Positions 20,028 to 51,527 are shown, counted from the stretch's first letter. The stretch is DNA of 64,000 nt from Candidatus Altiarchaeota archaeon (GCA_043804895.1 JAZDIN010000004.1:72887-136886), one strand, 5' to 3'. Numbers and translations are program-made. The notes: generated by a model from the sequence alone, not told the origin.

Positions 20028-20030
20028 GAC

Positions 20031-20491: not shown

Positions 20492-20607
20492 TTGACGGCA
20501 TAAAACATATGCTGATTGATACTATCCAAGAGTTAGTGAACATTATTCATTTTTATTCTTTCATTGCAGGTAATTAACTAGTCAGCATAAGATGGAGGAC
20601 TCTAAAG

Positions 20608-21312: not shown

Positions 21313-21360
21313 ATGTGGCGTAGCCACTGGCTACGACACGCGCCCGAGACAATGTCTCGG
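21313..21360 (+). repeat. multi-hairpin module copy, inside a hairpin-rich tract of about 340 nt (21060-21406)
   Basis: ATGTGG-CGTAGCCACTGGCTACG-ACACGCGC-CCGAGACAATGTCTCGG. Confidence 0.7.
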
Positions 21361-21406
21361 TCGCGAGGCACCATCCGCTCCAGTGCGAGCTGATGCGTCA
21401 GCTCAA

Positions 21407-21568: not shown

Positions 21569-21629
21569 GTAGATTTGTTTTGTTGGTTATCCTCTCAGTA
21601 TATCTGAGATTCATATTAGATTAGTGTAA

Positions 21630-21713
21630 TCCGGTATGATAGGCCGGTATCTGGCTCGAAGAGCCGGATATGCGCGACCGCCGCAGCGTCGCATGCATCT
21701 ACACTAAGGGAGC
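21630..21713 (-). pseudogene. partial tRNA-Glu copy B: positions 1-31 with a 50-nt insert in the D-loop and no 3' half
   Basis: GCTCCCTTAGTGTAGA-[50 nt, 21648-21697, two hairpins]-CCGGCCTATCATACCGGA, then TTACACT and the hairpin AATCTCAGATATACTGAGAGGATA. The exon parts are identical to the complete gene. Confidence 0.6.
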
Positions 21714-21768
21714 GTTTGTGCGCTCTTTTTATCTATCCTCTCCGCGTGGAGATTCATTGCTCCAGTAG

Positions 21769-21850
21769 TCCGGTATGATAGGCCGGTGTCGGGCATGGGA
21801 GTGCCCGAGACGCCCGACGCGGATGCGTCGGATGCGTCTACACTAAGGGA
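21769..21850 (-). pseudogene. partial tRNA-Glu copy A: positions 3-31 with a different 50-nt D-loop insert
   Basis: (AA)TCCCTTAGTGTAGA-[50 nt, 21787-21836, two hairpins]-CCGGCCTATCATACCGGA, then CTACTGG and the hairpin AATGAATCTCCACGCGGAGAGGATA. The first two acceptor nucleotides do not match. Confidence 0.6.
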
Positions 21851-21878
21851 TTGGTTTTGTTATTAGGGGTCTTGTTTT

Positions 21879-36585: not shown

Positions 36586-39327
36586 TCACTTATTCTGCCT
36601 TGGCACCAGTATAACCTTCGGCCTCTTCCTTATGCCGAGTATTCCGGTAACTTGGTTTTTCACCTGTTCTGCCTTTTTGACGAGCGGAGGTTGCGGGTCG
36701 GCTGGAGCCTGCAGGATTTTTGTCTCGATTTTCTTCTTCCACGGCTTAACTAGAGGCCCGGCCTCAACCGCCCTCTTTTCCAGTTTAGGTAGTATGACAG
36801 TCCTTTGCTTCAGCCCGAAGCGCGTCACGTTCGTGAGCCTCTCAAGTTCCTTCGCGATCGCCTGCTGTAGTGTGAGTTGTTTCTTCGACTCCAGCGCCTT
36901 CCCGTCTTCGACTGGTTTAGGTTTCCTCCCAAAGAATTTTTCCTTCAGTCCGGTGACGTTGAGTACGATCTTTTTCTTAGGTTCGGTGGACGGCCTTCGA
37001 AGGAGCAGGTAGGCGACGGCTGCTAAGCTCAATGCTATTGCGATGTTCTGGCTGGTGAGCCAGGATGATGAAGTGGAGAACGTTTTCTTGCCGTCCTCGG
37101 CCTGCATGTATAGTCGCTGCGCCTTCCTGTATCCGGTCGCGTCGCCTGAGGTGTTGAATGCTGACATGGACTTGCCGGAGTATTCTAAGGCTTCGTCGAA
37201 GCTCATGTTGTCGTACGACTGCTGCGCCCTCACGTAGAGTATGTCCGCTTCCACCAAGCTTTTGGTGCTGTCGTACATGGTTATGGCTTTTTCAGCGTTT
37301 TCTCCGCCTGTCTTCTGGTAGAGTGGTATGGCCTGCTTCAACTGGTCTGATGCCTTGATGTAGTCTCCTTCGTTGTAATATTCCAATGCCTTCTGATAGT
37401 ATGTGTCTGCCTTAATCTTGGTGAGCATCCTCTCGGTCTTCTCCAATCCGGCGTTGTTGCCTGCGAGCTCGTACGACTGTCTGGCGAAGCCGAATATCAT
37501 CAAGGCGTTATCTGGTTTCCCCTCACCGATAGCCTTCAGGCCGTCGGCATAGTATTTGTCTGCCTTCTCGGTTAGGCTGAACATGTCAGACGCGTTCCTA
37601 AGTTTGATGAGACTTTGGGTGTCGTTCACTCCACGGTAGAATCTCGCCGCAGCAGCAAGGTATGTTGACGCGTTCTCTGTGAGCCCGATGGAGTAGTAGT
37701 ATTGGGCTTCAAGGAGGTATTTTTCAGCCTCTATCTTCTGGTAGAGGAGCTGGCTTTTCCTGATGCCTGCCGTATCGTTGACGTCCCCGTAAATCCTAGA
37801 GGCCTCATCAAGCCTGCGGCCGGCTTCGGTCAGGTTGGCGTCGATGTAGAGGCCTTCAGCCCGGTTGAACACGAGGTCAGCGTCGAGGGAGCGCAGGAGG
37901 TTGTCGCATTTGACTATGCCATCAGGGTAGGATATCTTCGAGTATACGGACCTTGCAGCCGCAATGTTCTCCTTCGCCGACTCCATGTCGCCCACGTCCC
38001 TGTTCCTGAGCGCAGCCCGGTATGAGACGTCGCCGAAGGCTATCCTCACGCGCCGCATGTCGCCGAACATGTAGAGGCGGCCGTCGTCTGAGCCGACTGC
38101 GAACTCCAGCGCCCCGTCGTTTGTGAGGTCCGCTACCGCAGGCGACGACTTCACTTTCCCGCCGGTCCTGTAACTGAACTTCCTCGTGCCAGGATAGTTT
38201 ATGACGTACACCACCCCATCGTCTGAGCCGAAGATGACGTCGGTCACGTTGTCGCGGTTCAGGTCAGCGAGCGCTGGTGAGGATTCTATCGGCTCGGTGA
38301 GCGTGTACCGTTTGACTAACGTGAGGTTCGTGTGCATGAAGTAGAGGGTGCCGTCCGCTGACCCGAATATCACGTACGCGACTCCGCTGTCGTCCAGGCT
38401 GGAGAGAGCCGCGGAGGATGTTACGGCCCCCCAGGAGGTGTAGTTGACTGCTGACATGCCTGTCGTCCCAATCGACTCCGTCGTCCACCCTGCCGCAGTC
38501 CTGACGCGACGCGTCTCGGTCGCATCGGTAGCTTCTATGGTCAGCCGGTATATCTTCCTGTCCTCTGAGCCTACGTAGACGTATCCGGTGTTGGCTATCG
38601 CTGGCGTTGCTGATATGTCGCCGTCGACAGCATAGGACCAGGACTTGTATGGGGGGTGTTTTAGGATGTACACCATGTTGTCGTTGGAGCCTATGATGAC
38701 GTCAGCCCCACCGGTGTGGTCAACGTCAAAGAGCGCGGGAGAGGACGCTATGCTGTCGAGGGTCTGGTACTCCCACACCCTGATGCCCGGGTGGTTGAGG
38801 CAGTAGACTGCACCGTCGTATGAGCCGAACACGACCTCCTTGGCTGGTGTGCCTCCCAAGTCCATGACAGCCGGCGAACCCCGAACAACACCATGGGTGG
38901 TGTAGTTCCACATTAGCCTGCCATTGTTGTCGAGGACGTATAGGTTGCCGTCGTCTGAGCCGAACACGACGTCCGTCTTACCGTCGCCGTCAACGTCAGC
39001 GAGAGTAGGGGACGAGCGGACAGGCGCGCCTGTTGCGAACTTCCACAAGAGCCTGCCAGAGTAGTCAAGCGCATATAGGCGGCCGTTGTCTGAGCCGAAC
39101 ACGACCTCGAGGATTGTGTCGTTGTTTATGTCTGCTATCGCAGGGGAGGACCTTACCGGCTTCCCAGTCGAGTAGTTCCACAGGAGTTGTATGTCGTTGA
39201 GGCTGTACTTCGAATACGCCGTCGAAACTCCATTCCTTTGGTAGTTGCCACGGAACGTGGGCCAGTCATGGGATGACACGGACTGAGCCAGGGCGAAGAG
39301 CGCCAAAACCAGGAGAATCTTCCTCAT
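36586..39327 (-). CDS. large type I membrane protein: signal peptide, 8-blade PQQ/FG-GAP-like beta-propeller, helical (TPR-like) repeats, TM helix and a Lys/Pro-rich cytoplasmic tail
   Basis: Signal peptide MRKILLVLALFALAQSVSS. Eight repeats of the (F/V/I)GSxDxxxY type (FGSDNGRLYALD, FGSDDGNLYVLD, FGSYDGAVYCLN, IGSNDNMVYIL, VGSEDRKIYRL, FGSADGTLYFM, FGSDDGVVYVIN, VGSDDGRLYMF), preceded by ADxDxDG-like loops. TM helix IAIALSLAAVAYLLL. Confidence 0.8.
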   Translation of the reverse strand: MRKILLVLALFALAQSVSSHDWPTFRGNYQRNGVSTAYSKYSLNDIQLLWNYSTGKPVRSSPAIADINNDTILEVVFGSDNGRLYALDYSGRLLWKFATGAPVRSSPTLADVDGDGKTDVVFGSDDGNLYVLDNNGRLMWNYTTHGVVRGSPAVMDLGGTPAKEVVFGSYDGAVYCLNHPGIRVWEYQTLDSIASSPALFDVDHTGGADVIIGSNDNMVYILKHPPYKSWSYAVDGDISATPAIANTGYVYVGSEDRKIYRLTIEATDATETRRVRTAAGWTTESIGTTGMSAVNYTSWGAVTSSAALSSLDDSGVAYVIFGSADGTLYFMHTNLTLVKRYTLTEPIESSPALADLNRDNVTDVIFGSDDGVVYVINYPGTRKFSYRTGGKVKSSPAVADLTNDGALEFAVGSDDGRLYMFGDMRRVRIAFGDVSYRAALRNRDVGDMESAKENIAAARSVYSKISYPDGIVKCDNLLRSLDADLVFNRAEGLYIDANLTEAGRRLDEASRIYGDVNDTAGIRKSQLLYQKIEAEKYLLEAQYYYSIGLTENASTYLAAAARFYRGVNDTQSLIKLRNASDMFSLTEKADKYYADGLKAIGEGKPDNALMIFGFARQSYELAGNNAGLEKTERMLTKIKADTYYQKALEYYNEGDYIKASDQLKQAIPLYQKTGGENAEKAITMYDSTKSLVEADILYVRAQQSYDNMSFDEALEYSGKSMSAFNTSGDATGYRKAQRLYMQAEDGKKTFSTSSSWLTSQNIAIALSLAAVAYLLLRRPSTEPKKKIVLNVTGLKEKFFGRKPKPVEDGKALESKKQLTLQQAIAKELERLTNVTRFGLKQRTVILPKLEKRAVEAGPLVKPWKKKIETKILQAPADPQPPLVKKAEQVKNQVTGILGIRKRPKVILVPRQNK

Positions 39328-39367
39328 CCTTAATTAATGGTGTTTAAAGAACATATTTATACGAGAA

Positions 39368-40072
39368 ATGGGTAAACTTGCCGGGAGAGGACAAAGCGGG
39401 GTGGAATTGATAGTCGGACTCGTCTTCATAGTGATGATATTCCTAGTCATCGTCCTCCTGTCCATGGAGAAGACTTCGGAGAGCGCGGACATAAAGACCT
39501 ACCTTGACGTGAAGAGGCTCGGAGGAAGCGTAAAGGACAACATAAACATGATAAGCCAGCAGGGGCCAGGATACTACAGCTACTTTTCAATACCGGAACA
39601 GTTGCAGGGCGGGTACGAGTATGACCTGTTCATGAGGGGCAACGTCATGGAACTCATGTGGGGGAACAACACGTGGTCCGCGAAGCTCTTGGCATCAAAC
39701 GCGACGGTGCACTGCCTAAGTAAGGGATTGAACAGGAAGAACAGGATATTCTACAGTGAGGACGGCATAGAAATAACATGCCACCTCCCCAACCTGAAGA
39801 TTCCAAAAAATAGGGTGATCGTGAACAAAGATGGCAACTACACTAAGGCCTACATTGTAAACGATGCGCATGTGGATTCGCCGGGATTCACAGCAACGTT
39901 CCGCACGAGAGACAATGAGACGAACGTTTCCATGAGCGGCCTGCCAGCCGGAGAATCGGTGATGCTCCAATTCAACTCCACTCTCGCTGATTATGTGACA
40001 GTGTACGCGGACTCCGGCTATGAGGTGAACGAGAGCATAGAGGACGACAACAACTACACGGCAATAATATGA
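39368..40072 (+). CDS. prepilin-like protein (class III signal peptide), 234 aa
   Basis: N-terminus MGKLAGRGQSGVELIVGLVFIVMIFLVIVLL: a basic residue, then G|Q, Glu at +5 and a hydrophobic helix. Several N-x-S/T sequons. Confidence 0.65.
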   Translation: MGKLAGRGQSGVELIVGLVFIVMIFLVIVLLSMEKTSESADIKTYLDVKRLGGSVKDNINMISQQGPGYYSYFSIPEQLQGGYEYDLFMRGNVMELMWGNNTWSAKLLASNATVHCLSKGLNRKNRIFYSEDGIEITCHLPNLKIPKNRVIVNKDGNYTKAYIVNDAHVDSPGFTATFRTRDNETNVSMSGLPAGESVMLQFNSTLADYVTVYADSGYEVNESIEDDNNYTAII

Positions 40073-40614
40073 AAAAAACTGGGGAACCACGGGGGCAGAT
40101 GTTCAGCGGCGAACTACTGATAGCCCTGGTGGTCGCACTAGCAGCAATAATACTGATACTGGGGCTTTGGAGCTCATCAACCAGGGAGGTCCTTGAAACA
40201 GAAGGCTTCAAGGACATGGAGGAGGCGGGCGTGGACGCGGCTGAGGAGCTTGTGAGGACACCCGGGATACCATCAGACTGGGGCGTCGAAAACGTCACAT
40301 CACTCGGCCTAGCCAACGAAAGCAGAATACTGATGCCGCATAAGATCAGAAGTTTCATCGAATACATGAGCAACGACGTCTCCACCTTGTGCAGCGGAGG
40401 CATGAACTACGAATGCAACCTCCACATGCTCGGGATGGGAGGCTACCAATTCTGGTTCAACCTCACATACATGAACGGCTCCACCGTCAACGCAGAGGGC
40501 ACACCAGCCTGGACCGGCGTGCGCCCAGGAAGCGGAAACAACACCATAACAATAGTACGTACAGCGATACTTGAAGGTAAGGTAACAAAGATGTACCTCA
40601 CGGTGTGGAGATGA
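40069..40614 (+). CDS. prepilin-like protein, 181 aa
   Basis: MKKTGEPRGQMFSGELLIALVVALAAIILILGLW. ATGA overlap with the upstream gene. Confidence 0.65.
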   Translation: MKKTGEPRGQMFSGELLIALVVALAAIILILGLWSSSTREVLETEGFKDMEEAGVDAAEELVRTPGIPSDWGVENVTSLGLANESRILMPHKIRSFIEYMSNDVSTLCSGGMNYECNLHMLGMGGYQFWFNLTYMNGSTVNAEGTPAWTGVRPGSGNNTITIVRTAILEGKVTKMYLTVWR

Positions 40615-42545
40615 GAAGAGGATACGCAATGCTGTTGGACGCTGCAGTAGCCTTGACGTTCACCCTCATAATACTCTACTCGCTCATTGGGATGCAATAC
40701 ACCGGCTCATCAGGCTCGGACGCGTCCATGAGGAGGCTCCACTACGTCTCCGAAGACGTCCTGGACGTGATGAACAAACAGGGAATCCTGGACCAGGTGG
40801 GTGAGGAATGGGCCGCTGCGGACGGCAACAAGAGCAGCCCCCACTACATCAACGCCACAATATTAGCCAATGAAAGCATACGGCCCCTACTGCCCCAAAA
40901 CATCGGATACATGCTCACCATAGACGACGACCCAGTCGTAAACGACAGCGAAACCCCCCAAGACATATCAGACTCCCTAACCCATTCCACCCGACTCCTA
41001 GTCGGCTACGGAAAAGGCCTCCCAACCCGCGGGAACGTGGCTAGGGCATTCCTGACAAGCATTAAGGGAAAACAGGCCTCAGCTTACACTTTCTTCGGCG
41101 GGAGGGTGGGATTAGGGAACATTACAGTCGACGTCAAAGACGTCCCCCAAGACAACACGAACATACTAAAATACTGCCTCGAATTGAACACCAACTCCAG
41201 CTTTAATTTAAAAATTGACGGCCAAGCCGCCGGCACGTATAACATAATCGCTTCCCCGCAGATGAAACCAAACGTGGTCGAAGGTGAGAACGACGCAGAT
41301 CAGATACAATGCTGCGTGAATTCGACGTCATACCCTCTTTCAGACCAAGGCAGTGACGGCATCTTAAGGTTCGAGATAACGTTCACTAACCCTGACATCA
41401 AAGACCATTACGTCAACGGCGGCTACGCCCACGTCAGGTACAACACCTCGGAGATGGACACCAAGCCGATATCAAAGTACATGGAAAAGAACCTGCCTGG
41501 AATAAAGGGTGGGGTGATTGACCTGAGGGACTCATTCTACGTCCCAGGGGCGATAAAGGATATGAACGTGCACCTGCACTTCAAAAGCAAGCCGCAAGTC
41601 TACTTCAACATTGCGAACGTCACTGTATACAATTCAACCGACGGGGACTCAAGCGAGCAGGTGGTCGACATACCTAATCCAGTGGGATTGTACTATGAAC
41701 CGGTTGAGGATGCATCCTCCCTAAGCGGCAAGACCGTGCCGATAATGATGGGAACATACAACTACACCGAACTGGCTGAAGCAGGCTACACAGAGGCTGA
41801 ATTATACCCGGACTCATACATCGAGTTCACGTATGACACAGCCAACAAATCCTACTATGGTATGGTCTCCCTAACCGAGGCGACCGGAAGGTTCGACAAC
41901 CCTATGGACCCATGCGAAGGCAATATCAGCACCCCCCCGGGCGTCACATTATCAGACGTCGAAGTCCTCTCATATTCAGGCCCACACTGGACTGATTACG
42001 TGGACCTAGGTGGAGTGGCAGTCTACAATCTGCCAGGAAGCTGGTCGAGCGAGAACTATTCCATGTTAGGCAACCCATCAGCAGTAAACATCCCGCCAGA
42101 GTACGTCACCCCAGGCGGGACCAACATAGTTAAAGTCCGTACTGGAAACACGACAAAGGCCTCGCAAGGCTGCACCACATACAACAAGGGAGTGTACACC
42201 ATGAGGGTTAAGACGCTCGTCGGATACGGAGACGTCTACCAGAAGATGGAGGGCTGCAAATGGGACATTGAGTTCGAGGACGGCTCGCCGCTGACTGGGG
42301 AGAGGATACCAGCCTCCTACGCAGGAAACGACACCTGCAACTACACGAGCTACAGCATAGCGTACGCGAAGGACGATGCCATGAAGGACGCGGTATACAG
42401 GCTATTTTATGAGCTTGACTTCGACAAGGACGGGGAAGTGGATTTATTATTCGACCAAACCATGATAGATTTTGAGATTGGACAGGCCGGAGGAGTCCAG
42501 TCACTATGGGGCCCGGCAAGGTTCAAACTGGTGGTTTGGATATGA
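40611..42545 (+). CDS. large prepilin-like protein, 644 aa
   Basis: MRRGYAMLLDAAVALTFTLIILYSLIG. The start is set at the ATG forming an ATGA overlap (the track used GTG at 40605). The remainder is Asn/Thr-rich and extracellular-like. Confidence 0.6.
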   Translation: MRRGYAMLLDAAVALTFTLIILYSLIGMQYTGSSGSDASMRRLHYVSEDVLDVMNKQGILDQVGEEWAAADGNKSSPHYINATILANESIRPLLPQNIGYMLTIDDDPVVNDSETPQDISDSLTHSTRLLVGYGKGLPTRGNVARAFLTSIKGKQASAYTFFGGRVGLGNITVDVKDVPQDNTNILKYCLELNTNSSFNLKIDGQAAGTYNIIASPQMKPNVVEGENDADQIQCCVNSTSYPLSDQGSDGILRFEITFTNPDIKDHYVNGGYAHVRYNTSEMDTKPISKYMEKNLPGIKGGVIDLRDSFYVPGAIKDMNVHLHFKSKPQVYFNIANVTVYNSTDGDSSEQVVDIPNPVGLYYEPVEDASSLSGKTVPIMMGTYNYTELAEAGYTEAELYPDSYIEFTYDTANKSYYGMVSLTEATGRFDNPMDPCEGNISTPPGVTLSDVEVLSYSGPHWTDYVDLGGVAVYNLPGSWSSENYSMLGNPSAVNIPPEYVTPGGTNIVKVRTGNTTKASQGCTTYNKGVYTMRVKTLVGYGDVYQKMEGCKWDIEFEDGSPLTGERIPASYAGNDTCNYTSYSIAYAKDDAMKDAVYRLFYELDFDKDGEVDLLFDQTMIDFEIGQAGGVQSLWGPARFKLVVWI

Positions 42546-45103
42546 AAGTCAAGGGATTGTTCTTCACGGTTGGCGCCTTAATCCTCATAATACCCCTCAT
42601 ATTCTTCGTAGCATACTACTCCACCATGGCGCCGACGAAGACGGCGGACACGGTGTCTAAGATACGCTGCGACGAGCTGCATTACTTCGTCGAAGACGTC
42701 CGCGGAGACCTTGAGCGCGCCCTTGTGATATTCGGCCGCAGGGCCACAATTTACGCGATAGACGATGTTGTTAAAAGCGGCAAGCCACTCAACGACTACG
42801 TGTTCAACTGCTCCACAAGCTGCAACCTGGACTGCAGCGAATTCAAGTTCGAGGTGAACGGCAGCGAGTCAGCCCTCGCTGAACTCATGCTCTGCGGCAC
42901 GTTACACGGCCAAAACGTCACATACATGACCAACCACACAGTGTCGCAGTGGATTAACCGGATACAACAGCATGCCAAGGACATGCACTTCAATGTCACC
43001 ATAACGATGAGACAGTTGAAGATCACGCCAAAGGACCCCTGGACCTACCAAATCTACACCAACAGCACATTCAACGTCTTCGACGAATCAGGCACATGCT
43101 ACTACGTCGGCGACAACATCATAACATCCTCCCCCTCATCAATACTCGGACTGGAGGACCCCCTATACCCACTCAACACCAACTCAGAAGTAATAAAATT
43201 CATAAACAACTGCACCACCAAAATAAACCTCCAGATGCTGGCAGGTTGCAGTAAATCTGATTTAGGCAACGGCACCGGGACCGGGAGAGTCATATTCTAC
43301 TCGCACAGGCAACCGCATCCTGGTTGGGATGATTTTTGCTCCACGACACCAAATGCAGATAAGTACATACTCGTAATAGACCAGGCGATAGGGGGCGGTT
43401 CGTTGTGCACACACATAGAGAACTCTTGTTTTAACGCATCAAGCCCTAGTCATCTTGCAGGTTTGATAAACGAAGGCCCAGATAACATAAATTCGTTGCT
43501 ACACAATTGTGAGGTCACGATACCATGGATAACCGACACAGGAGTCATCGACGATGACCCTGAAGGCCACCCCGGCTGGGACCCAGACCCAAACTGCTTC
43601 CAAGCGAACATATCAAACGACTCCTGCGTGGAAATCCATAACGACGAGAACTGCGGACTATACCAGGTTCTTGTCGGCCAGGATGCGGAGTCGTTGAACA
43701 CCACATGCTATCAGCTGAGCAACGTATCGGAATACGTTTTCGGGGGAGTGAATGGCCCGAGCTTCTTCGACAGGCTTGACGGGAACCTGAACCTAACCAA
43801 CAAGTACGCAAACCAGAGTTTCGAGTACTTCGGGACAAGGCTCATCGGCATTGAGACCCTTGTGAGTCCATACGACCTGAACAGGCATGGCGTCCGGGTG
43901 AACACGAACGCCACATGGGTGGACTACCTGTACTGGGCTGGAGTGGACGGCTGCGGAGCGAGGGGCTTCTGCGAAGGCGGAAGATACGCCTTCCGTTTGG
44001 AGGAAGAGCATGTGCCAGTATACAAGGTCGAAACCGAATGCGCGATTATCCCGGGCTGCCCCAACTCAGCGGAGACATGCGTCGATTTCATCGACCAGGA
44101 CAACGACACCCAAGAGGACTGGAGGGACTACGACTGCAATCCCTCCTTTGCAAGATGTGGTGAGATACAACTATGCGGCATCACGGGGCCTGAGGAGTGC
44201 GAAAGCTGCGACGACACGACTCCGGAGCAGATGTCAGAGAACACGACAAGGACTTGCAACTATTACGGCTACAACGACACCGAATGGCATTTCTATAGAA
44301 TAACTCCCACTTCAGACGGTAGGCTGAGTGTGTTCTTAAACAGCACAAGCAACGTCACTGATGCGCAGAAGACGGACTTCAGCGTATACAACTACTCAGT
44401 CCCCGGCGTAGGTTGCACAAGCCAGGTGGAGAGGTTCCAGGACATTGAAGGAGCTGATACGGACACGGTCTGCGTGCTAGCCTACTCCGAGTATATCCTA
44501 GGCCTTGATGTCGACGTCCCATCATACGGTTACAACGGCTCATATGTGATGAACGTCACAGTAACCCCCGACCCAACGTGCGCCTCAGGCACCACATCCA
44601 CGACTACGACGTCCACGACAGGCTCGACGACAACGACCACGATATGCGGATTCTACGACGACATGGAGTCTGATAAGGAATGGAACAACGAAAACGAGTG
44701 GATAAGGGGTGTCCCAAGCAAACCAGGCTGGAGCAGCTGCTTTGCAGGAAGCTGCTTTGTGACTGACCTGTACGGACCGTACGACAACAATGCAAACGAA
44801 TCCCTGACCAGCCCGTGGATAAACCTGGCGCCGGCTGCTGGGGGTGCGGCGACCCTCAGATACCACCTGACATACAAGACTGAAGATAAGAGAGATTACG
44901 TCCACGTCGAATCCTCCGACGACGGAGTAAGCTGGATGGAGATTGTGAACTACACAAAGAACAACGGAAACGGTGACGTATACTCGCATAACATGAACAG
45001 CTACGCCGGAGGGCTGCTTAAGGTAAGGTTCAGGCTCACATCAGACTCAAGCGGAGACGACCGCGGAGCGATGGTGGATAACGTGAACGTAACCTGTTAC
45101 TGA
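42542..45103 (+). CDS. giant prepilin-like putative adhesin, 853 aa
   Basis: MKVKGLFFTVGALILIIPLIFFVAYY. It has a Cys-rich middle and a PPC-like segment (WHFYRITPTSDGRLSVFL...DFSVYNY). A Thr linker (TSTTTTSTTGSTTTTT) precedes a C-terminal jelly-roll/MAM-like segment (FYDDMESDKEW...SPWINL...LRYHLTYKTEDKRDYVHVESSDDGVSW...LKVRFRLTSD). Domain names are by resemblance only. Confidence 0.6.
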   Translation: MKVKGLFFTVGALILIIPLIFFVAYYSTMAPTKTADTVSKIRCDELHYFVEDVRGDLERALVIFGRRATIYAIDDVVKSGKPLNDYVFNCSTSCNLDCSEFKFEVNGSESALAELMLCGTLHGQNVTYMTNHTVSQWINRIQQHAKDMHFNVTITMRQLKITPKDPWTYQIYTNSTFNVFDESGTCYYVGDNIITSSPSSILGLEDPLYPLNTNSEVIKFINNCTTKINLQMLAGCSKSDLGNGTGTGRVIFYSHRQPHPGWDDFCSTTPNADKYILVIDQAIGGGSLCTHIENSCFNASSPSHLAGLINEGPDNINSLLHNCEVTIPWITDTGVIDDDPEGHPGWDPDPNCFQANISNDSCVEIHNDENCGLYQVLVGQDAESLNTTCYQLSNVSEYVFGGVNGPSFFDRLDGNLNLTNKYANQSFEYFGTRLIGIETLVSPYDLNRHGVRVNTNATWVDYLYWAGVDGCGARGFCEGGRYAFRLEEEHVPVYKVETECAIIPGCPNSAETCVDFIDQDNDTQEDWRDYDCNPSFARCGEIQLCGITGPEECESCDDTTPEQMSENTTRTCNYYGYNDTEWHFYRITPTSDGRLSVFLNSTSNVTDAQKTDFSVYNYSVPGVGCTSQVERFQDIEGADTDTVCVLAYSEYILGLDVDVPSYGYNGSYVMNVTVTPDPTCASGTTSTTTTSTTGSTTTTTICGFYDDMESDKEWNNENEWIRGVPSKPGWSSCFAGSCFVTDLYGPYDNNANESLTSPWINLAPAAGGAATLRYHLTYKTEDKRDYVHVESSDDGVSWMEIVNYTKNNGNGDVYSHNMNSYAGGLLKVRFRLTSDSSGDDRGAMVDNVNVTCY

Positions 45104-45177
45104 CCAGCGGGAAACCAATGCCAAGAGCCGTTCGTGAGCGTTTTAACCCGGTGAGTTAAATATATTCTCTGAATGAA

Positions 45178-45334
45178 CCGCAGCCTTTAGGCTGCGGTAC
45201 AACGGACACTAGGTGTCCGTGTACACGAACTCCAAAAGGAGTTCGTTGTATTCCAAATACGCTTAAAATGCCAAACAGCCAAACAAACACAGGAGGTGTA
45301 AGCGAGTAGGCTGTAGTGCCATCGCGTATTTGTA
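45178..45334 (+). repeat. three-hairpin module plus conserved leader upstream of 45335
   Basis: CCGCAGCCTTTAGGCTGCGG, CGGACACTAGGTGTCCG and GAACTCCAAAAGGAGTTC, followed by ...AAAATGCCAAA...AGGAGGTGTAAGCGAGTA...CGCGTATTTGTAATGA. Paralogous to 50194-50347. Confidence 0.75.
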
Positions 45335-46987
45335 ATGACCGAGGTGAAATCGAGGCTGCACGGCGGCATGGAGGAGAAGAAGAAGAAAGGCGCTGAGATG
45401 CTCAGACTCATCCTCGACAGCGTGAAAGCCAACGGCGTCCTATCCGAGAGCGAACTGGCCGGGAAAGTCGGATTAGACAAGAAAAGCCTCTCAAAATACG
45501 TCGAATACCTGAAGGAGAAGGAGCTCATCGCAGTCAAAAAGAGGATATTCGGCGAAGCTGAGATATCACTGACCGGTAAGGCATCCATTAGGCCGAAGCA
45601 GGAACACCCCGCCGAGGAGAAGAAACAGGAGATTCCGCCAGAAGTGCAGAAGGCTATCAGCACCATAAAATCGTGGGAGGCGCAAAGGAGCGGGACAGAA
45701 CCCCAGCCTGAACCTCCTGCGGCACCGGAACCTGAGGAGAAAGTAGGAGAACCCCCAGCAGAACCTGTGAAGACTGAGCCTACGCAACCAGTTGAACCAG
45801 CACCGGGTATTGAACCTAAATTTGAGCTGGCAAAGCCCATGCCAAAAACCAAGCCAGAGGAACCACCAGCTCAACCGCCCGCGCCAGTCCAGAAGGTGGA
45901 AACTCAGGAGAAGAAACCTGATGAGCCGGCCGGTGTTGGGGGAGGCGAGAAGGTCGTGCCAGAGACCGCTCAGGAGTTGAGGGAGGTCGTTAAAAGCCTG
46001 GTCACAGACTTCATCGGTGTGATGAGACTTTATGGGGAGGCGCAGGGGCAGTCGTACACCGCGGGACTCCTGATAGACAAGGGCGAGATAGTCGCAGTCT
46101 CCTTCGAGCACATGGACACCGTGGAACTCTCATACGGCGATGAGGCGATGAAGGAAATCCAGTCAAAGTTCATGGGCACCAAAGGCGACCTGGAGATATA
46201 CGAGATGAGCGAAGACGACCTCAACGCCTCGCTACGCGACAACGCGAACTACATGCTCTCCGCCCCGGTGAAGCTCTCCACTATGAACATCAGGATAAAG
46301 TCGCGGCTGAAGGAGGAGCCGGAAGCCGCGCCAAAAGGCTCACTCTTCTCCAAGCTCAAGGGAGCCCTCACAACACAAGACACCTCCGTAAAGGAGGAGC
46401 GGAAGAAGATGATGAGGGACCTGGAGAAGAAGGAGGGTAAAATCAACCTCGTCGAATTCGCCAGGAGCCTCACAATAGACCCGCTCAAAGCTAAACGATT
46501 CGAAGAGTTGAGAAAGCTCAGACAGGGAGTGGGCTCACAGAGGGGTGAGACTGAGGGGAGGAAAGCCGAACGGCTGCAGGAGCTGAAACTCCAACAAGCC
46601 ACGGCAGCGGCCGTAGGGATACTAGGCGGGGGGAACGCGAAGGAGGCGAGGCTTGAGGAGATGAGGCAGGCGAGGGCAGAGCCGATTAAAGTGGAGGTTG
46701 AGGAGAAAATCCCGACACAGGCGGTCCAAGAAGGCCATAAGGTGGAGACGAACATAGACAAGCTGTACTCGCTCGTCGAATCACAAGGTAAACTCAGGAT
46801 AAACGACGCCCTAGCAGCCAAACTCAAAGTCAGCAAAACGCAGATAGAGGAATGGGCGATGATACTGGAGGAACACGGCCTCCTCGAGCTCAAGTACCCG
46901 ACGATGGGGGAACCGGAGATAATTAGCGCGCACCCAAGCAAAAACGTTAAAAACGAGGCAGCAGATGGAAAGAAAAAACAGCAGTAA
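45335..46987 (+). CDS. pilus-locus protein: N-terminal wHTH, Pro/Glu-rich linker, central domain, C-terminal wHTH-like domain
   Basis: LRLILDSVKANGVLSESELAGKVGLDKKSLSKYVEYLKEKELI (wHTH). A PEPPAAPEPEEK...PAQPPAPVQ linker. C-terminus IDKLYSLVESQGKLRINDALAAKLKVSKTQIEEWAMILEEHGLLELKYP. Precedes and overlaps the ATPase gene. Confidence 0.6.
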   Translation: MTEVKSRLHGGMEEKKKKGAEMLRLILDSVKANGVLSESELAGKVGLDKKSLSKYVEYLKEKELIAVKKRIFGEAEISLTGKASIRPKQEHPAEEKKQEIPPEVQKAISTIKSWEAQRSGTEPQPEPPAAPEPEEKVGEPPAEPVKTEPTQPVEPAPGIEPKFELAKPMPKTKPEEPPAQPPAPVQKVETQEKKPDEPAGVGGGEKVVPETAQELREVVKSLVTDFIGVMRLYGEAQGQSYTAGLLIDKGEIVAVSFEHMDTVELSYGDEAMKEIQSKFMGTKGDLEIYEMSEDDLNASLRDNANYMLSAPVKLSTMNIRIKSRLKEEPEAAPKGSLFSKLKGALTTQDTSVKEERKKMMRDLEKKEGKINLVEFARSLTIDPLKAKRFEELRKLRQGVGSQRGETEGRKAERLQELKLQQATAAAVGILGGGNAKEARLEEMRQARAEPIKVEVEEKIPTQAVQEGHKVETNIDKLYSLVESQGKLRINDALAAKLKVSKTQIEEWAMILEEHGLLELKYPTMGEPEIISAHPSKNVKNEAADGKKKQQ

Positions 46988-48530
46988 ACCGGCGGATGAG
47001 GAGATACTCTCAACCTATGAGATAGAGTCGGCGGAAGTGAAGACTACAGTGCAGGTGGTCATGAAGGACTATGTGCCCTACTACAGGCTAGTGCTGCCAG
47101 AGGTCGACGTCGCAACACTCGCACTCCTGGATGACATAAAGGACAGGATGATATCCGGCGTGGAGATGACGACGACCGAGATACTGGACCCGAAACTCCT
47201 CGGCCAGCTGAAGAGTGAATTCAGCAAGAAGGCGGATTCCATACTCGAGAAGGAACTCCCCGAACTCGACGACGACGTGAAGAAGCACTTCATAGTGAAC
47301 ATCATCCACGAGCTTCTGGGCCTGGACGAGATAGAGTACTTCCTCTCAGACCCGAACCTCGAGGAGATAGTCGTCAACTCCTCAACAGAGCCTGTTCGGG
47401 TGTACCACAAGAAGTTCGGATGGCTTAAGACTAACATAACGCCCCAGAACGAGCTTAGGATACAAAACTACGCGAACACGATAGCAAGGAGGGTGGGCAG
47501 GGAAGTGACGACACTCAACCCGCTCTTGGATGCGCACCTGGTGAGCAAGGACAGGGCGAACGCGATACTAACCCCCATATCCACGAAAGGGAACACCATT
47601 ACTATAAGAAAATTCGCAAGGGACCCGTGGACCTGCACAGACTTCATAAACACAGAAACAGCCACACCGGAAGTCCTAGCACTAATCTGGCTGATGATAC
47701 AATACGAGATGAACATAGTAATCTCCGGAGGAACAGGCTCGGGGAAGACCAGCTTCCTGAACATCTGCATGCCGTTCATACCCCCCAACCACCGCATCAT
47801 AAGCATCGAAGACACGAGGGAACTGCAGCTGCCAGACTACCTGTACTGGTGCCCGCTCACCACAAGGGAGCCGAACCCAGAGGGGAAAGGCGAAGTCAAC
47901 ATGCTAGACCTGCTCGTGAACTCGCTGAGGATGCGGCCGGACAGGATAATAATGGGTGAGGTCAGGAAGAAGAGGGAGGCTGAAGTCCTCTTCGAGGCGA
48001 TGCACACCGGACACTCCGTCTACTGCACCATACACGCGGACACATGCGAGCAGACCATAACGAGGATAACCAACCCGCCCATAGAGGTGCCGCACAGCAT
48101 GCTAGAGGCTGTCCACCTTAACATCGTCATGTTCCGCGACAGGAGGCGCGGGATAAGACGGATCTTCGAAATGGGTGAATTCGTCCAGGACGAGGAGAAG
48201 AGGCACAGTGGAGAAGTGAGGTACAAACCGAACATAATCTACAGGTGGGACGCGAGAGACGATAAGATAGTCCCCAACATGGAGCCGATGAGACTATTCA
48301 CCGAACTATACCGCCACACCGGCCTCACAAGAGCCGAAGTCGTAGAGGACATAAACGAGAAGAAGGCAATCCTCGAATGGCTTGTGGAACACAAGGTAAG
48401 GCAGATAAACGACGTCGGCAAGGTCTTCAACAGATACTACATCGACCGAGCGACTGTAATCAAGCAAGTGAAGAAGAACGGCGACCCAAGGGAGATAATA
48501 GGCGAGTTCACGCCTGACATTCTCATTTGA
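46965..48530 (+). CDS. type IV pilus/archaellum-type secretion ATPase (FlaI/TadA/GspE superfamily)
   Basis: Walker A ISGGTGSGKTSFLN, Walker B/Asp box PDRIIMGEVR and His box TGHSVYCTIHA. 521 aa. Confidence 0.9.
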   Translation: MERKNSSKPADEEILSTYEIESAEVKTTVQVVMKDYVPYYRLVLPEVDVATLALLDDIKDRMISGVEMTTTEILDPKLLGQLKSEFSKKADSILEKELPELDDDVKKHFIVNIIHELLGLDEIEYFLSDPNLEEIVVNSSTEPVRVYHKKFGWLKTNITPQNELRIQNYANTIARRVGREVTTLNPLLDAHLVSKDRANAILTPISTKGNTITIRKFARDPWTCTDFINTETATPEVLALIWLMIQYEMNIVISGGTGSGKTSFLNICMPFIPPNHRIISIEDTRELQLPDYLYWCPLTTREPNPEGKGEVNMLDLLVNSLRMRPDRIIMGEVRKKREAEVLFEAMHTGHSVYCTIHADTCEQTITRITNPPIEVPHSMLEAVHLNIVMFRDRRRGIRRIFEMGEFVQDEEKRHSGEVRYKPNIIYRWDARDDKIVPNMEPMRLFTELYRHTGLTRAEVVEDINEKKAILEWLVEHKVRQINDVGKVFNRYYIDRATVIKQVKKNGDPREIIGEFTPDILI

Positions 48531-49245
48531 CGACTATGCCTGTGTCCGTGAACTCCATGTTATGAGAGCCTGCGTTAATCCTAGTCTGCCGCAGCTTCTC
48601 GACGCTCACGGACCTCAGGACATCCTTGCCTATCATCAACTTCTTGAACACCACAACCCCGTCGCAGACGAACTCGCTCACCTCGTCCCTCGTCATCCTC
48701 TCAGGGTCAAGCTGCTCTGAGATTATCAGTGATGTGACACCCATGGACTTGATCCTGCTCAGTATGTGGTATATCGTCTGCTTCCGGTACTGGTCTGGGT
48801 CCATCGCAATCCTGGAGTGTAAGTCAACGGACAAATCCATAAGCTTAATGTGCTCAGGGTCCTCAAGTATGTTAGTGTAGACTGAGACAACCGACAGACT
48901 GTCGATGACAAGGCGCTTTGCGCCCTTAGCCTCCACCTCATCCTTAAGGTAGCTCATGAAACCCTGGATGTCCTTGTGCTTAATGGACAAAAGCGAAAAA
49001 AGCTTCTCGTTGCGTATCTCATTCCAGCCGAACTGCTCGGCCTGCATGATAATGTCCTCCCTGAACTGCTCGAAGCTGACGTAAATCCCAGGCTCGCCCC
49101 TCTTGACACCATCATGAATGAACTGTAAACCAAGTATCGTCTTGCCTGTTCCTGGAGCCCCAGAAACAAGAACGTTAAAGCCTTCGGGAATTCCCCCGGC
49201 AATAAGGCTGTCTAATCCGCTAACCCCTGTTGAGAGACGTTTCAT
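48523..49245 (-). CDS. KaiC/RecA-superfamily ATPase (FlaH-like)
   Basis: RLSTGVSGLDSLIAGGIPEGFNVLVSGAPGTGKTILGLQFI and Walker B RLVIDSLS. 240 aa, single domain. Confidence 0.85.
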   Translation of the reverse strand: MKRLSTGVSGLDSLIAGGIPEGFNVLVSGAPGTGKTILGLQFIHDGVKRGEPGIYVSFEQFREDIIMQAEQFGWNEIRNEKLFSLLSIKHKDIQGFMSYLKDEVEAKGAKRLVIDSLSVVSVYTNILEDPEHIKLMDLSVDLHSRIAMDPDQYRKQTIYHILSRIKSMGVTSLIISEQLDPERMTRDEVSEFVCDGVVVFKKLMIGKDVLRSVSVEKLRQTRINAGSHNMEFTDTGIVVK

Positions 49246-49287
49246 GTTAATTAATACGTCTTTAATATTAAATCCTATTCCTATTTA

Positions 49288-50187
49288 ATGCAAGCCATTA
49301 GGATACCCATGCTAGGCTCCGCGAGCATAAGAAACACATCCCGCATATTCATAGGAGTCGGCGCCATAATGCTCCACATATTCCCCTCCATGAAGAACGC
49401 CGTCGAACAGTCCGGCGTCCGAGAGGAATACAAGATAGACACCCGCGAATACCTCGCATTCTGCTTCTTCGTCTCGATGATAATGCTAGTCGGCTTCGGA
49501 GGCCTCATAACAGCCATACTGGTGTTGGGGAAGGCTAAGATGCCCATGCTCGGGCCGACGATTGGAGTCGTCCTTGGGCTGGTGTTCTTCATGTACCTCA
49601 TGGTTTACCCAAGATCCATAGTCAACAAGAGGGTCAAGTACATAGAACGGAACCTCCTCTTCGCCCTCAGAAGCCTCCTGATACAGGTCCGCTCCGGTGT
49701 ATCGCTGTTCAACGGGATGGTTTCCATCGCCACCGGCAACTACGGTGCAATAAGCGAGGAATTCAAGCTGGTCGTGGAGAAGGTGAACGCAGGACGCCCG
49801 GTCGTAGAGGTCTTGGAGGAGATGGCGATAAGGAACCCGAGCCTGTACTTCAGGCGCGCCCTATGGCAGGTAGTCAACAGCCTCAAATCCGGCAGCGACG
49901 TCGGCAAAAACCTCGAGGACGTGATACGCTCCCTCTCAAAAGAACAACTCGTGGAGATAGGCAGGTACAAGAGCATACTCAACCCCCTCGCAATGATGTA
50001 CATGATGGTCGCAGTCATAGCACCGTCACTTGGCATAACCATGCTCATAATCCTCTCCTTCTTCCCTGGAATGGAGAAACTAGGCAACGAAACCGTATTC
50101 TGGGGCCTCCTCGTAGGCGTCGTGTTCATGCAGTTCGTGTTCCTCGGCCTCATAAAATCAAAGAGACCGAACCTGATAGGAGGATAA
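49288..50187 (+). CDS. T2SSF-domain membrane protein (TadB/FlaJ N-half-like)
   Basis: One T2SSF-like cytoplasmic domain (LFALRSLLIQVRSGVSLFNGMVSIA...EVLEEMA...SLKSGSDVGKNL) between TM segments. Confidence 0.8.
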   Translation: MQAIRIPMLGSASIRNTSRIFIGVGAIMLHIFPSMKNAVEQSGVREEYKIDTREYLAFCFFVSMIMLVGFGGLITAILVLGKAKMPMLGPTIGVVLGLVFFMYLMVYPRSIVNKRVKYIERNLLFALRSLLIQVRSGVSLFNGMVSIATGNYGAISEEFKLVVEKVNAGRPVVEVLEEMAIRNPSLYFRRALWQVVNSLKSGSDVGKNLEDVIRSLSKEQLVEIGRYKSILNPLAMMYMMVAVIAPSLGITMLIILSFFPGMEKLGNETVFWGLLVGVVFMQFVFLGLIKSKRPNLIGG

Positions 50188-50193
50188 AATAAA

Positions 50194-50347
50194 CCGCAGC
50201 CTTTAGGCTGCGTATTCCAATGTGGCCGAGACAAATGTCTCGGACACACACCGGAGGCTAAGAGCCTCCGATGTGATACGCTCAAAATGCCAAAAAGCAA
50301 AAAACAGATAGGAGGTGCAAGCGAGTAAGAATACTCGCGTATTTGTA
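50194..50347 (+). repeat. three-hairpin module plus conserved leader upstream of 50348
   Basis: CCGCAGCCTTTAGGCTGCG, ATGTGG, CCGAGACAAATGTCTCGG, ACACACACC, GGAGGCTAAGAGCCTCC, then ...AAAATGCCAAA...AGGAGGTGCAAGCGAGTAAGAATACTCGCGTATTTGTAATGA. Confidence 0.8.
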
Positions 50348-51346
50348 ATGAGTTTCGTGAAGATGCTGTCCCGGATGCTCCCGAGGAAGATGAGGGACAA
50401 CTACCACCAACTGCTCGGGTGCTCCACAGTCAAGGGAGACCCGGACTCGTTCATAGGGATGGCCCAGGTCATCGGGATAGTGGCGAGCTTCACCATCACC
50501 CTCTTCACAGGAAACTACAAGACAGTACCACCCCTCCTAGTGTTCGTCGCATCGTTCATGGTCATAGAATTCCTCATATACCTCTGGCTGGTCCTGAACG
50601 TGAGCGCCAAGGGACAGCAGGTGGAGGCCGCCCTCCCGGATGCACTCCAGCTGATGTCATCCAACATCAGAGCAGGCCTCACCACAGACAAGGCCCTCCT
50701 CCTTGCAGCAAGACCAGAGTTCGGGGCCCTTGAGGAGGAGCTAAGGAGGGTGGGGAAGGAGACGATGGCAGGCAGAAGCCTCGCCGACGCCCTCTCAAGG
50801 ATGACTCTCCACATAAGGTCCAACGACCTGGACAGGACCATAGAGTTGCTCATACACAGCCTAAAATCCGGAGGACAGCTCGCAGACCTCCTCGACCAGA
50901 CAGCAAACGACCTGAGGGACCAGCAGATAGTCCAAAAGGAGATAAGCGCCAGCGTCCTCATGTACGTCCTTTTCATATTCATCGCCCTTGCGATAGGCGC
51001 CCCAGTGCTCTTCTCCATGTCATCGTTCCTAGTCGAACTCCTCTCCACGAACATGCAACTGATAGCGAAGGAGATGCCGAAGGACTTCGGCGCCCACGGC
51101 GGGTCCATGCCGATAAAGATGACCGGCACCACAGTCAGCACCACCTTCCTCCACACCTACGCCATAATCTCGATAACGCTATCGTGCGTATTCGGAGGCC
51201 TCATAATCGGGATGATACTCAAAGGAGAGGAGAAGGAGGGAGTCAAATACATACCAATCATGCTCTTCGTAGCGCTGCTGCTATTCTTCTTGGCCACGTT
51301 TGTGTTGAAGTCGACAATCGGCGGCATGATGCCGATGGGCGATTAG
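50348..51346 (+). CDS. T2SSF-domain membrane protein (TadC/FlaJ C-half-like)
   Basis: [22 protein letters not shown]...LADALSRM...[11 protein letters not shown]. The ATG at 50348 is chosen by analogy with the conserved leader of 45335; the track's GTG at 50315 lies inside the AGGAGGTG block. Confidence 0.8.
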
Positions 51347-51347
51347 A

Positions 51348-51527
51348 ATGGAATGTAAGAAAAGAGAGAACCTTAAAGACTGCAACTGCACGTACCCGTG
51401 CGAGAGAAGGGGCCTCTGCTGCGAGTGCGTGAGGTACCACAGGAGCAGGAACGAAATACCTGCCTGCTACTTCAGCCCAGAGAAGGAAAAGACGTACGAC
51501 AGGAGCATAAGGGGATACGGCCGCTAG
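51348..51527 (+). CDS. small Cys-rich protein (59 aa)
   Basis: My own translation: [59 protein letters not shown]. It starts 1 nt after the TadC-like stop. It resembles a widespread small Cys-rich family seen in anaerobes, recalled from memory and not verified. Confidence 0.5.

Follow-up and report, generated by a model that had tools for sequence, protein, structure and literature searches.

A 64-kb stretch of DNA from a metagenome-assembled genome (MAG) of Candidatus Altiarchaeota archaeon, called here the window, was found to contain at positions 36586-51527 a locus that most probably encoded a type IV filament (TFF) machine of the archaeal type IV pilus (T4P) or Tad-Epd-like kind. This machine would assemble a non-motile adhesive surface filament and was known here from its genes; we gave this reading a probability of about 0.75. 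The locus possessed the set of parts by which TFF systems are recognised, namely a secretion ATPase of the T2SSE/VirB11 family, a T2SSF platform and filament proteins with class III-like N-termini. An earlier sequence-only reading of the window had proposed a non-archaellum type IV filament at this place, and the TFF ATPase, the split platform, the four coupled class III-like proteins and the conserved synteny all agreed with that proposal.

The locus genes were named g1 to g11 in positional order from 36586 to 51527, and the locus also contained two copies of an intergenic cassette:

g1, 36586-39327, minus strand: 913 aa; Sec-type signal peptide, PQQ/FG-GAP beta-propeller, helical TPR-like region and one C-terminal transmembrane segment.
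g2, 39368-40072, plus strand: 234 aa; pilin-like protein with a C-terminal CARDB Ig-like domain.
g3, 40069-40614, plus strand: 181 aa; minor-pilin-like protein.
g4, 40611-42545, plus strand: 644 aa; giant pilin-like protein, a variant without the vWA domain.
g5, 42542-45103, plus strand: 853 aa; giant pilin-like protein, putative adhesin-carrying pilin.
Intergenic cassette copy 1, 45172-45337, plus strand: three hairpins and a leader, ending at the ATG of g6.
g6, 45335-46987, plus strand: 550 aa, cytoplasmic; winged helix-turn-helix (wHTH) domain, Pro/Glu-rich linker, DUF2226, charged helical region and C-terminal wHTH.
g7, 46965-48530, plus strand: 521 aa; secretion ATPase of the T2SSE/VirB11 family.
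g8, 48523-49245, minus strand: 240 aa; single-domain KaiC/RecA-like ATPase.
g9, 49288-50187, plus strand: 299 aa; TadB-like platform protein with one T2SSF domain.
Intergenic cassette copy 2, 50188-50350, plus strand: paralogous to copy 1 at 45172-45337; its end coincides with the ATG of g10 at 50348.
g10, 50348-51346, plus strand: ~332 aa; TadC-like platform protein with one T2SSF domain.
g11, 51348-51527, plus strand: 59 aa, Cys-rich; DUF6485.

The map of open reading frames (ORFs) and the domain searches recovered all the genes that the sequence-only reading had listed between 36586 and 51527. These included the divergent 913-aa beta-propeller membrane protein adjoining the locus (g1), the wHTH/Pro-rich protein and the secretion ATPase (g6 and g7, each with domain matches) and the 59-aa Cys-rich protein coupled to the second T2SSF gene (g11, which started 1 nt past the g10 stop). 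ATGA overlaps were present at the g2/g3, g3/g4 and g4/g5 junctions, as expected for the four coupled genes described at 39368-45103. The statement that these genes grow from 181 to 853 aa had to be corrected, since their sizes in gene order were 234, 181, 644 and 853 aa and thus not monotonic. The g6 and g7 genes overlapped by 23 nt, and the start of g10 was most likely the ATG at 50348 rather than the GTG at 50315. The window background was that of ordinary archaeal housekeeping, with genes for ribosomal proteins, EF-1alpha and EF-2 as well as queuosine-type genes.

The secretion ATPase g7, of hexameric type and regarded as the motor of pilus assembly, matched PF00437 with an E-value of 1.3e-32, and its translation contained a Walker A motif (GGTGSGKTS), an Asp box (IEDTRELQL), a Walker B motif (DRIIMGE) and a His box (HTGHSVYCTIHA). 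FlaI was its top NCBIfam model (270 bits, cutoff 550), followed by TadA (169 bits, cutoff 373), BasE (155 bits, cutoff 1000) and ComGA (66 bits, cutoff 300), and PilB3_C was matched weakly at 21.5 bits, below the cutoff of 27. In the PDB the ranking was led by GspE of A. fulgidus (2oap, 222 bits) with FlaI (190 bits) and CpaF (171 bits) behind it. The closest protein, at 100% identity, was an NCBI entry named 'MAG: Candidatus Altiarchaeota archaeon', and the next relatives, at 82-58% identity, were proteins of Altiarchaeota, followed by those of Nano- and Woesearchaeota. Both platform proteins carried a single T2SSF domain (PF00482, E 1e-15 for g9 and 6e-19 for g10) and were paralogues of each other (26% identity, E 6e-14), so that the two separate T2SSF genes, split as TadB and TadC, that had been described before were indeed present.

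Related loci were gathered by an ATPase-profile scan of one genome per species, which yielded 569 confirmed loci, and the best 80 were retained. They belonged to MAGs or single-amplified genomes of Altiarchaeota, Woese-, Nano-, Aenigmat- and Iainarchaeota, 56 of them being DPANN/other. A core made of the wHTH protein, the ATPase and the two single-domain T2SSF genes was syntenic in these 80 loci. Directly 3' of the ATPase gene, a TadB-like and then a TadC-like gene followed in 47/48 DPANN/other loci and in 10/18 Altiarchaeota loci. A homologue of g4 or g5 was situated at most 10 kb upstream in 10 of 28 DPANN/other and 10 of 14 Altiarchaeota loci, and homologues of g3, g4 and g5 often occurred nearby. 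A KaiC-like gene, after TadC and with 25-35% identity to g8, was part of the locus in 30/43 cases among DPANN/other; in Altiarchaeota, 2/19 loci had a KaiC-like gene. The typical DPANN locus read as two or three QxSxE pilins of ~130-170 aa, a g3-like pilin, a g4-like pilin of 890-1633 aa, a g5-like pilin of ~320 aa, the wHTH protein, the ATPase, TadB, TadC and KaiC.

ATPase identity was 53-81% across the Woese-, Nano-, Aenigm- and Iainarchaeota. In a neighbour-joining tree the Altiarchaeota ATPases formed a clade apart from the DPANN clade, which was consistent with vertical inheritance, and among the 80 loci the family was at least as common in DPANN as in Altiarchaeota. The sequence-only reading had held that it would be refuted if the ATPase and T2SSF genes clustered within a well-described clade of identical gene content. 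This was largely what we found: the locus belonged to a large clade with a near-identical core that is recognised in the literature, where it is known from genes.

One Altiarchaeota ATPase sub-clade (L009, L011, L015 and L017-L021, including SM1/IMC4) had no TadB/TadC downstream of the ATPase. A g6-like gene was usually still located upstream, with the exception of L009, the SM1/IMC4 genome, where the ATPase stood without adjoining pilin or platform genes. In L017 and L019 the g4-g5 pair was tandemly duplicated.

The filament proteins were assigned from motif, hydrophobicity, conservation and AlphaFold models. A six-frame scan of the window for [KR][GAS] with a strongly hydrophobic ~20-mer behind it, close to where an ORF begins, found g2 (RG|QSGVE), g3 (RG|QMFSGE), g4 (RG|YAMLLD) and g5 (KG|LFFTVG), and the other matches were only internal transmembrane helices of T2SSF and MFS proteins. 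Homologues from the 80 loci and two protein searches revealed a motif for each family: [KR][GA]|QxS/AIE for g2, in which the Glu at +5 is the canonical pilin signature; K[GAS]|Qxxxx[DE]L for g3, with the acidic residue of the window protein at +6; [KR]G|YAxxLDA for g4; and [KR]G|[FL]xFT...IPL, without an acidic residue, for g5. Each family retained its own motif across phyla. Thus, the class III signal-peptide-like N-termini that had been noticed on g2-g5 were the sole four in the window and were conserved by family.

Judged by its sequence, g2 was the sole candidate in the locus for a major, PilA-like pilin. The mean hydrophobicity of its N-terminal segment was 3.3, and its CARDB domain was matched at E 1.9e-5, above the cutoff. 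A DPANN homologue of g2 (L045:8406-8798) matched the pilin-like DUF7266 at E 4.8e-5, below the cutoff. Among 118 small class III-like neighbours of homologous ATPases, 12 matched Class_IIIsignal (best E 4.6e-7), 7 matched DUF7266 and 3 matched DUF7287, and DUF7289 was also matched by neighbouring pilins in related loci. The archaellin model Arch_flagellin (PF01917) had no match in g2-g5 and one weak match (E 0.0026) among the 118 pilins. The g3 family comprised 36 ORFs in related loci; g3 itself had no Pfam match, and no Pfam counterpart was found for the g3, g4 and g5 families, including the Tad N-terminal and DUF2341 models in the case of g4 and g5.

The two giant proteins carried the evidence for adhesion. 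An insertion of 214-442 residues after window residue 392, with a DxSGS motif of the metal ion-dependent adhesion site (MIDAS) type and with vWA Pfam domains, was present in 32/35 g4 homologues, and the g4 family was therefore regarded as a modular vWA pilin. The insertion was missing from the window protein and from three close relatives (P0251-P0253 in the compared set P0242-P0276), which in this alignment indicated a lineage-specific domain loss common to these relatives. In g5 a conserved N-terminal module of ~500 aa was followed by a region rich in Cys and a linker rich in Thr, and the C-terminus, where a MAM-like domain was matched, consisted of two jelly rolls of the MAM/CBM-like kind. 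All 136 of its 136 named homologues were from Altiarchaeota; in these the N-terminal ~58% of the protein was conserved, and the variable C-termini included MAM-like PF20773, Big PF17957 and FN3. When the N-terminal module alone was used in an exhaustive search, 521 representative clusters were recovered at E<=1e-3, and many of these were ~300-330 aa long and matched in three blocks, corresponding to the short form of the DPANN loci.

AlphaFold2 models built from family alignments had a mean predicted local distance difference test (pLDDT) score of 82.3 for g4, with an N-terminal helix at residues 2-30, further helices up to residue 93 and then beta-sandwich domains, and of 87.6 for g5, with helices at 3-28 and 37-79. 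In both models an N-terminal transmembrane helix led, over a short kink of low confidence, into a long second helix and then beta-rich domains, and the predicted layout was a pilin-like 'helix plus head'. Foldseek searches with g4 and with the g5 N-terminal module produced only non-specific jelly-roll matches with low TM-scores, and no structure of a pilin or pseudopilin was among them. Through its C-terminal domains g5 matched neuropilin, reelin, enteropeptidase-MAM and CBM22/51, folds that serve in adhesion or in the binding of carbohydrates. The large adhesin-like pilin proteins that had been suggested for this locus were in keeping with the jelly-roll heads of g5 and with the vWA domain in most g4 homologues.

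From these parts the following mechanism can be proposed. A prepilin peptidase encoded elsewhere would cleave g2-g5 after [KR]G, and g7, docked on a heterodimeric g9/g10 platform, would extract the pilin-like proteins from the membrane and polymerise them through their hydrophobic N-terminal helices. The shaft would be formed by g2, with its Glu at +5 and its Ig-like CARDB head, or by a pilin encoded elsewhere. The g3-g4-g5 set may act as a conserved minor-pilin initiation or tip complex that is functionally similar to TadE/F/G or GspI/J/K, and this complex would expose vWA on g4 in most relatives and lectin/MAM-like jelly rolls on g5 here. The g6 protein may bind or regulate the ATPase through its C-terminal wHTH, g8 may modulate activity or expression, and at the envelope the filament may be anchored or guided by g1.

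Several points weighed against a filament of this kind. None of g2-g5 directly matched the Pfam pilin or class III models, even at E<=1. A relaxed scan of the window found neither a short Flp/Epd-type pilin nor a PilA-type pilin of ~130 aa, and since no small major pilin was present there, the shaft subunit was uncertain. Because g4 of the window lacked vWA, part of the adhesin logic of its relatives did not apply here. Prepilin peptidases (A24, class III) were absent from the 64-kb window, as had been stated before: its multi-transmembrane ORFs had other identities, namely UbiA, an AEC-type transporter and an MFS transporter. None was found among the candidate ORFs adjoining related loci (DUF116, GIDE and similar), and neither an EppA peptidase with nine transmembrane segments nor a TadV peptidase was found in the locus. 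Archaeal prepilin peptidases are usually encoded away from pilus loci (PMC4858521). Finally, it was only synteny and analogy that suggested a tip complex made of g3-g5 and a binding of the ATPase by g6.

The main rival was that the locus builds no long pilus but a short pseudopilus or an apparatus resembling a bindosome, for display or secretion, which would raise the g4/g5 binding proteins just above the membrane or the S-layer, either for binding of substrates or partners or for protein push-out as in the type II secretion system. The lack of a small major pilin in the locus agreed with such a device, and the largest products were modular, their binding domains being vWA in relatives and MAM/CBM-like in the window. 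Moreover, class III-signal binding proteins have been proposed to functionalise TFF machines (Sivabalasarma & Albers 2026 preprint, 10.64898/2026.04.22.720090). The BasE bindosome model was matched by g7 at 155 bits, but this was far below the cutoff of 1000 and weaker than the matches to afGspE, FlaI or TadA. On the other hand, g2 had the canonical Glu+5 pilin signature, the DPANN versions of the locus included two or three QxSxE pilins of ~130-170 aa, a size typical of shaft subunits, and no genes for substrate-binding proteins or ABC transporters adjoined the locus. On balance, we considered a pseudopilus-type device unlikely.

The competence, hami and archaellum readings had little support. 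In ultra-small organisms of the candidate phyla radiation (CPR) and DPANN, T4P have been proposed to act in DNA uptake. The T4P genes of ultra-small prokaryotes are discussed alongside competence genes (PMC9938205), and the locus family was widespread in DPANN. However, neither ComEC, DprA nor a DNA-binding pilin signature was found in the locus or window, the ComGA model reached 66 bits against a cutoff of 300, and the vWA, MAM/CBM and CARDB domains pointed to adhesion, which made a role in competence quite improbable.

An even smaller chance was left for the idea that the locus assembles the hami of Altiarchaeota, with g4 or g5 as hamus-like subunits. The organism belongs to Altiarchaeota, the subunit of the hamus has a mass of ~97 kDa and an N-terminal transmembrane helix, and T4P-like assembly has been proposed for it (PMC4460559), and g5 is an 853-aa protein with an N-terminal helix. 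However, S_layer_N (PF05123) forms the N-terminus of the hamus protein, for which a Sec signal peptide is also predicted; S_layer_N had no match in g2-g5, and g4 and g5 had neither feature. The hamus link was rejected on these domain criteria, the proteins being set apart by description. Furthermore, the family was no rarer in DPANN than in Altiarchaeota among the 80 loci, and the ATPase of SM1/IMC4 (L009) stood alone, without adjacent pilin or platform genes.

A degenerate or divergent rotary motility apparatus of the archaellum type was barely credible: FlaI was the top NCBIfam model for g7 and there were weak ArlJ/g9 and ArlH/g8 matches, but all three scores were far under their cutoffs (270/550, 29.4/550 and 47.7/215 bits), afGspE outscored FlaI in the PDB search, the platform was split into two genes, most Altiarchaeota versions lacked the KaiC gene, and no archaellin, ArlF/ArlG, ArlCDE or ArlX was found among the locus genes or in the ORF map of the window. 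An archaellum core was therefore rejected on the failed NCBIfam cutoffs, the PDB ranking and the lack of archaellin and stator genes. The sequence-only reading had seen here the FlaH-FlaI-FlaJ triad of the archaellum motor, which did not survive these equivalog cutoffs, g7 being nearer to afGspE; its remark that archaellin and FlaCDE/FG genes were missing applied to the locus and to the window alike.

Returning to the adhesive filament, we can extend the proposed tip complex further, in a tentative form that is probably too bold. In this extension g3-g4-g5 would be an ancient pan-DPANN/Altiarchaeota initiation and tip complex, made of a small pilin, a giant pilin that normally bears vWA and a second pilin with swappable C-terminal adhesion modules, and it would be related to bacterial TadE/TadF/TadG by homology and not by analogy alone. 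It has been proposed that bacteria took over Tad from an archaeal ancestor; if the extension were true, that ancestor would already have possessed the Tad module of minor pilins and a vWA adhesin. The filament would then be a general organelle of the whole radiation for attachment to hosts or surfaces, and free-living Altiarchaeota would have swapped the vWA head for lectin-like heads.

Among the accessory genes, g6 was the most closely tied to the machine. Its C-terminal ~60 aa (residues ~470-530, the wHTH) had a counterpart encoded immediately 5' of the ATPase gene in 18/20 loci of Altiarchaeota and in 40/52 of DPANN, and g6 was considered, by analogy, a putative regulator or adaptor of the ATPase. 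Its DUF2226 domain scored 29 bits against a cutoff of 22 and was detected only in Altiarchaeota homologues; the MarR/HTH_24 matches were weak. A possible identity of this domain as PATAN/DUF4388 was dropped, since Pfam returned DUF2226 only. No mention of DUF2226 or DUF6485 was found in the literature searched. Several Altiarchaeota (L017, L019, L020 and L011) had a separate coiled-coil protein of 356-443 aa upstream of the g6-like gene. These proteins had no significant similarity to g6; they may be the counterparts of what the 'CCP' genes encode in DPANN loci (PMC11291902).

The antisense g8 matched PF06745 at E 1e-46. Its best models, KaiC_arch_4 (120 bits) and thermo_KaiC_1, were both below their cutoffs, and it was a single 240-aa domain, not a clock-type double KaiC. 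Its PDB matches were KaiC, PH0186, SSO2452 and PH0284, with no FlaH among them. The antisense single-domain KaiC ATPase described before was thus found on the minus strand, and its designation as specifically FlaH-like had to be given up, given the ArlH score and the lack of a FlaH structure. The antisense position was kept only in the three closest relatives (L001-L003, 77-79% identity), and g8 was regarded as a putative regulator. The small g11 matched PF20095 (DUF6485) at E 3.6e-6 and 27.8 bits (cutoff 24), and followed TadC only in L001 and L003, with 64-70% identity. In L003 a 74-aa zinc-ribbon ORF (12325-12549) was located between the KaiC and TadB genes.

The divergent g1 was a type I membrane protein with an extracellular propeller and a Lys/Pro-rich cytoplasmic tail. 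It matched PF13570 (E 4.7e-45), PQQ_2 and FG-GAP, its PDB relatives were archaeal cell-surface PQQ-like propellers (3hxj and the 'Cake' and 'Bagel' designs), and a weak PilW/TPR match (E 3e-4) was far below the cutoff. A homologue in the same divergent position was present only in L001, L003, L012 and L036 among the 80 loci, and its linkage to the pilin operon was therefore partial. It may be an accessory or envelope anchor protein.

The intergenic cassette of ~165 nt was duplicated, with one copy upstream of g6 and one upstream of g10, and the two copies had 72% column identity. Each contained three consecutive strong hairpins, of which hairpin 1 was identical and hairpins 2 and 3 differed in sequence yet folded. 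Copy 1 had a minimum free energy of -69.3 kcal/mol (z -7.8), and copy 2 had a z of -6.8. The leader that followed was conserved and had the form 'ATACGCTyAAAATGCCAAA...AGGAGGTG.AAGCGAG-hairpin-CGCGTATTTGTAATG', and its A-rich part in copy 1 contained CTTAAAA and GGAGGTG. Searches in Rfam gave no match, the cassette was found in 0/80 related loci, and a partial third copy of hairpin 1 occurred at 5478-5498. By its sequence the cassette looked like terminator-like hairpins followed by a promoter resembling a B recognition element (BRE) and TATA box and by a structured 5' leader. Such a combination of terminator, promoter and leader would imply co-regulated transcription units inside the locus.

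Other repeats were seen elsewhere in the window. A structured repeat ('TCCGGTATGATAGGCCGGT ... CTACACTAAGGGA') occurred three times, at spacings of 95 and 139 nt, in non-coding DNA at 21531-21860, downstream of the EF-1alpha gene, with no Rfam match and no tRNA nearby. The region 16000-21500 may be a mobile or integrated island: its GC content was 0.455-0.467 against ~0.52 elsewhere, it had small PIN/AbrB-like ORFs resembling toxin-antitoxin pairs, and it contained two near-identical direct repeats (18671-18739 with 20423-20491 at 97%, and 18822-18852 with 21387-21417 at 94%). At 11911-16652, PAS/sensor-kinase-like genes were followed by four tandem stand-alone receiver genes of ~123-132 aa, an unusual array that was read from N-terminal sequences only.

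With respect to its significance, the locus leaves the current understanding of how type IV filaments work unchanged. Its split platform, KaiC neighbour, giant adhesin-pilins and lack of a local peptidase are known traits of archaeal type IV filaments. Support for the idea of an epibiont was only indirect; homologous loci were nonetheless abundant in DPANN phyla. Since the same machine was found in the Woese-, Nano-, Aenigm- and Iainarchaeota loci, and a 2024 survey had reported conserved DPANN pilus loci only for cluster-2 DPANN and Undinarchaeota, the machine probably dates back to the ancestor of the radiation and did not arise as an invention of epibionts. The g3-g4-g5 triad, the modular heads (vWA or MAM/CBM-like) and the ATPase-adjacent wHTH offer targets for electron microscopy, proteomics and structures of DPANN attachment.

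Among known systems, the archaellum (ArlB/ArlH/ArlI/ArlJ) shared with the window locus the TFF superfamily, FlaI as the top NCBIfam model and a nearby ATPase of the KaiC/RecA fold, and differed from it in all the equivalog cutoffs, in archaellin, stator and ArlCDE/X genes and in its unsplit platform. The vWA-bearing pilin PilB of Streptococcus sanguinis (PMC8179133) resembled the giant proteins in the fusion of a pilin N-terminus to an adhesion module (vWA in g4 homologues, MAM/CBM-like in g5). In contrast to PilB, these proteins were archaeal, much larger and without detectable sequence homology to it, and their incorporation into a filament was putative.

The bacterial Tad/Flp system was similar in its ATPase, to judge from the bit scores of the TadA/CpaF type (169-171 bits), in a platform made of two single-T2SSF proteins, in a putative pseudopilin set to which a large vWA protein belongs (TadG in bacteria, most of the TadG-like g4 family in archaea) and in a TPR-containing accessory protein. 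Unlike bacterial Tad, the window locus had no Flp-type pilin, TadV, secretin (RcpA) or TadZ, its g4 lacked vWA, and its proteins did not match the Pfam TadE/TadG N-terminal models. The likeness of g3-g5 to bacterial TadE/F/G was architectural, and homology between them would be putative; the bacterial TadG is mentioned in PMC4858521.

Euryarchaeal clade 2 or system 2 T4P (PilB3-PilC3 and PilB4 of Haloferax volcanii; afGspE, 2oap) included the best solved relative of the ATPase, afGspE, and were also linked to the locus by the weak PilB3_C match, by the KaiC association, by the frequent presence of two tadC genes and by the DUF7266, DUF7287 and DUF7289 matches of related-locus pilins. KaiC-family ATPases have been linked to archaeal T4P loci, and two tadC genes are a feature of clade 1 as well as of many clade 2 systems (PMC4858521). 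Unlike clade 2, the locus had a PilB3_C score below the cutoff, its g3, g4 and g5 had no Pfam counterpart, and it encoded two platform proteins, whereas the platforms of system 2 are single genes (10.64898/2026.04.22.720090).

According to Makarova, Koonin and Albers (2016, PMC4858521), the systems of clade 1 possess five or more minor pilins besides large adhesins with class III signals, and a Cys-rich cytoplasmic family is associated with them. 'System 1', with two platform genes, has been placed in DPANN, where two-platform variants of subsystem 4A also occur (10.64898/2026.04.22.720090); Altiarchaeota are not mentioned in that preprint. System 1 or clade 1, represented by the Epd pilus of Methanococcus maripaludis, thus resembled the window locus in its two platform genes, multiple class III minor pilins, putative large adhesin-like class III proteins, associated Cys-rich cytoplasmic protein and reported presence in DPANN. 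Unlike system 1, the window locus had no EppA-type peptidase, short Epd/Flp-like major pilin, DUF2341 adhesin or MinD/FleN ATPase. In contrast to the fast-evolving clade 1, its ATPase was well conserved and FlaI/afGspE-like, as compared by bit scores and description.

A close likeness was also seen to the two conserved T4P loci of cluster-2 DPANN and Undinarchaeota reported by Hamm et al. 2024 (PMC11291902), which encode CpaF, TadC, PilA/FlaF, coiled-coil proteins and a P-loop NTPase and several products of which have been detected by proteomics. These loci (Fig. 4 of that paper) shared with the window the CpaF-type ATPase, the TadC genes, PilA/FlaF-like proteins, the P-loop NTPase and coiled-coil proteins. 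They are conserved in Woese-, Pace-, Nano-, Aenigm- and Nanohaloarchaeota, and the 56 DPANN/other loci collected here matched them in layout, by which alone the two were likened. Compared with them, the pilin-like proteins of the window were larger, and the window locus also encoded a fusion of wHTH and DUF2226, a KaiC protein in antisense and a DUF6485 protein. The survey contained no loci of Altiarchaeota or other cluster-1 DPANN, whereas the window and L062 (Iainarchaeum) carried one. The loss of vWA from g4, the lectin-like heads of g5, the fused wHTH-DUF2226 protein and DUF6485 were lineage-specific here. What is modestly new, together with these changes, is the extension of this family to Altiarchaeota and Iainarchaeota and the definition of the conserved g3-g4-g5 triad.

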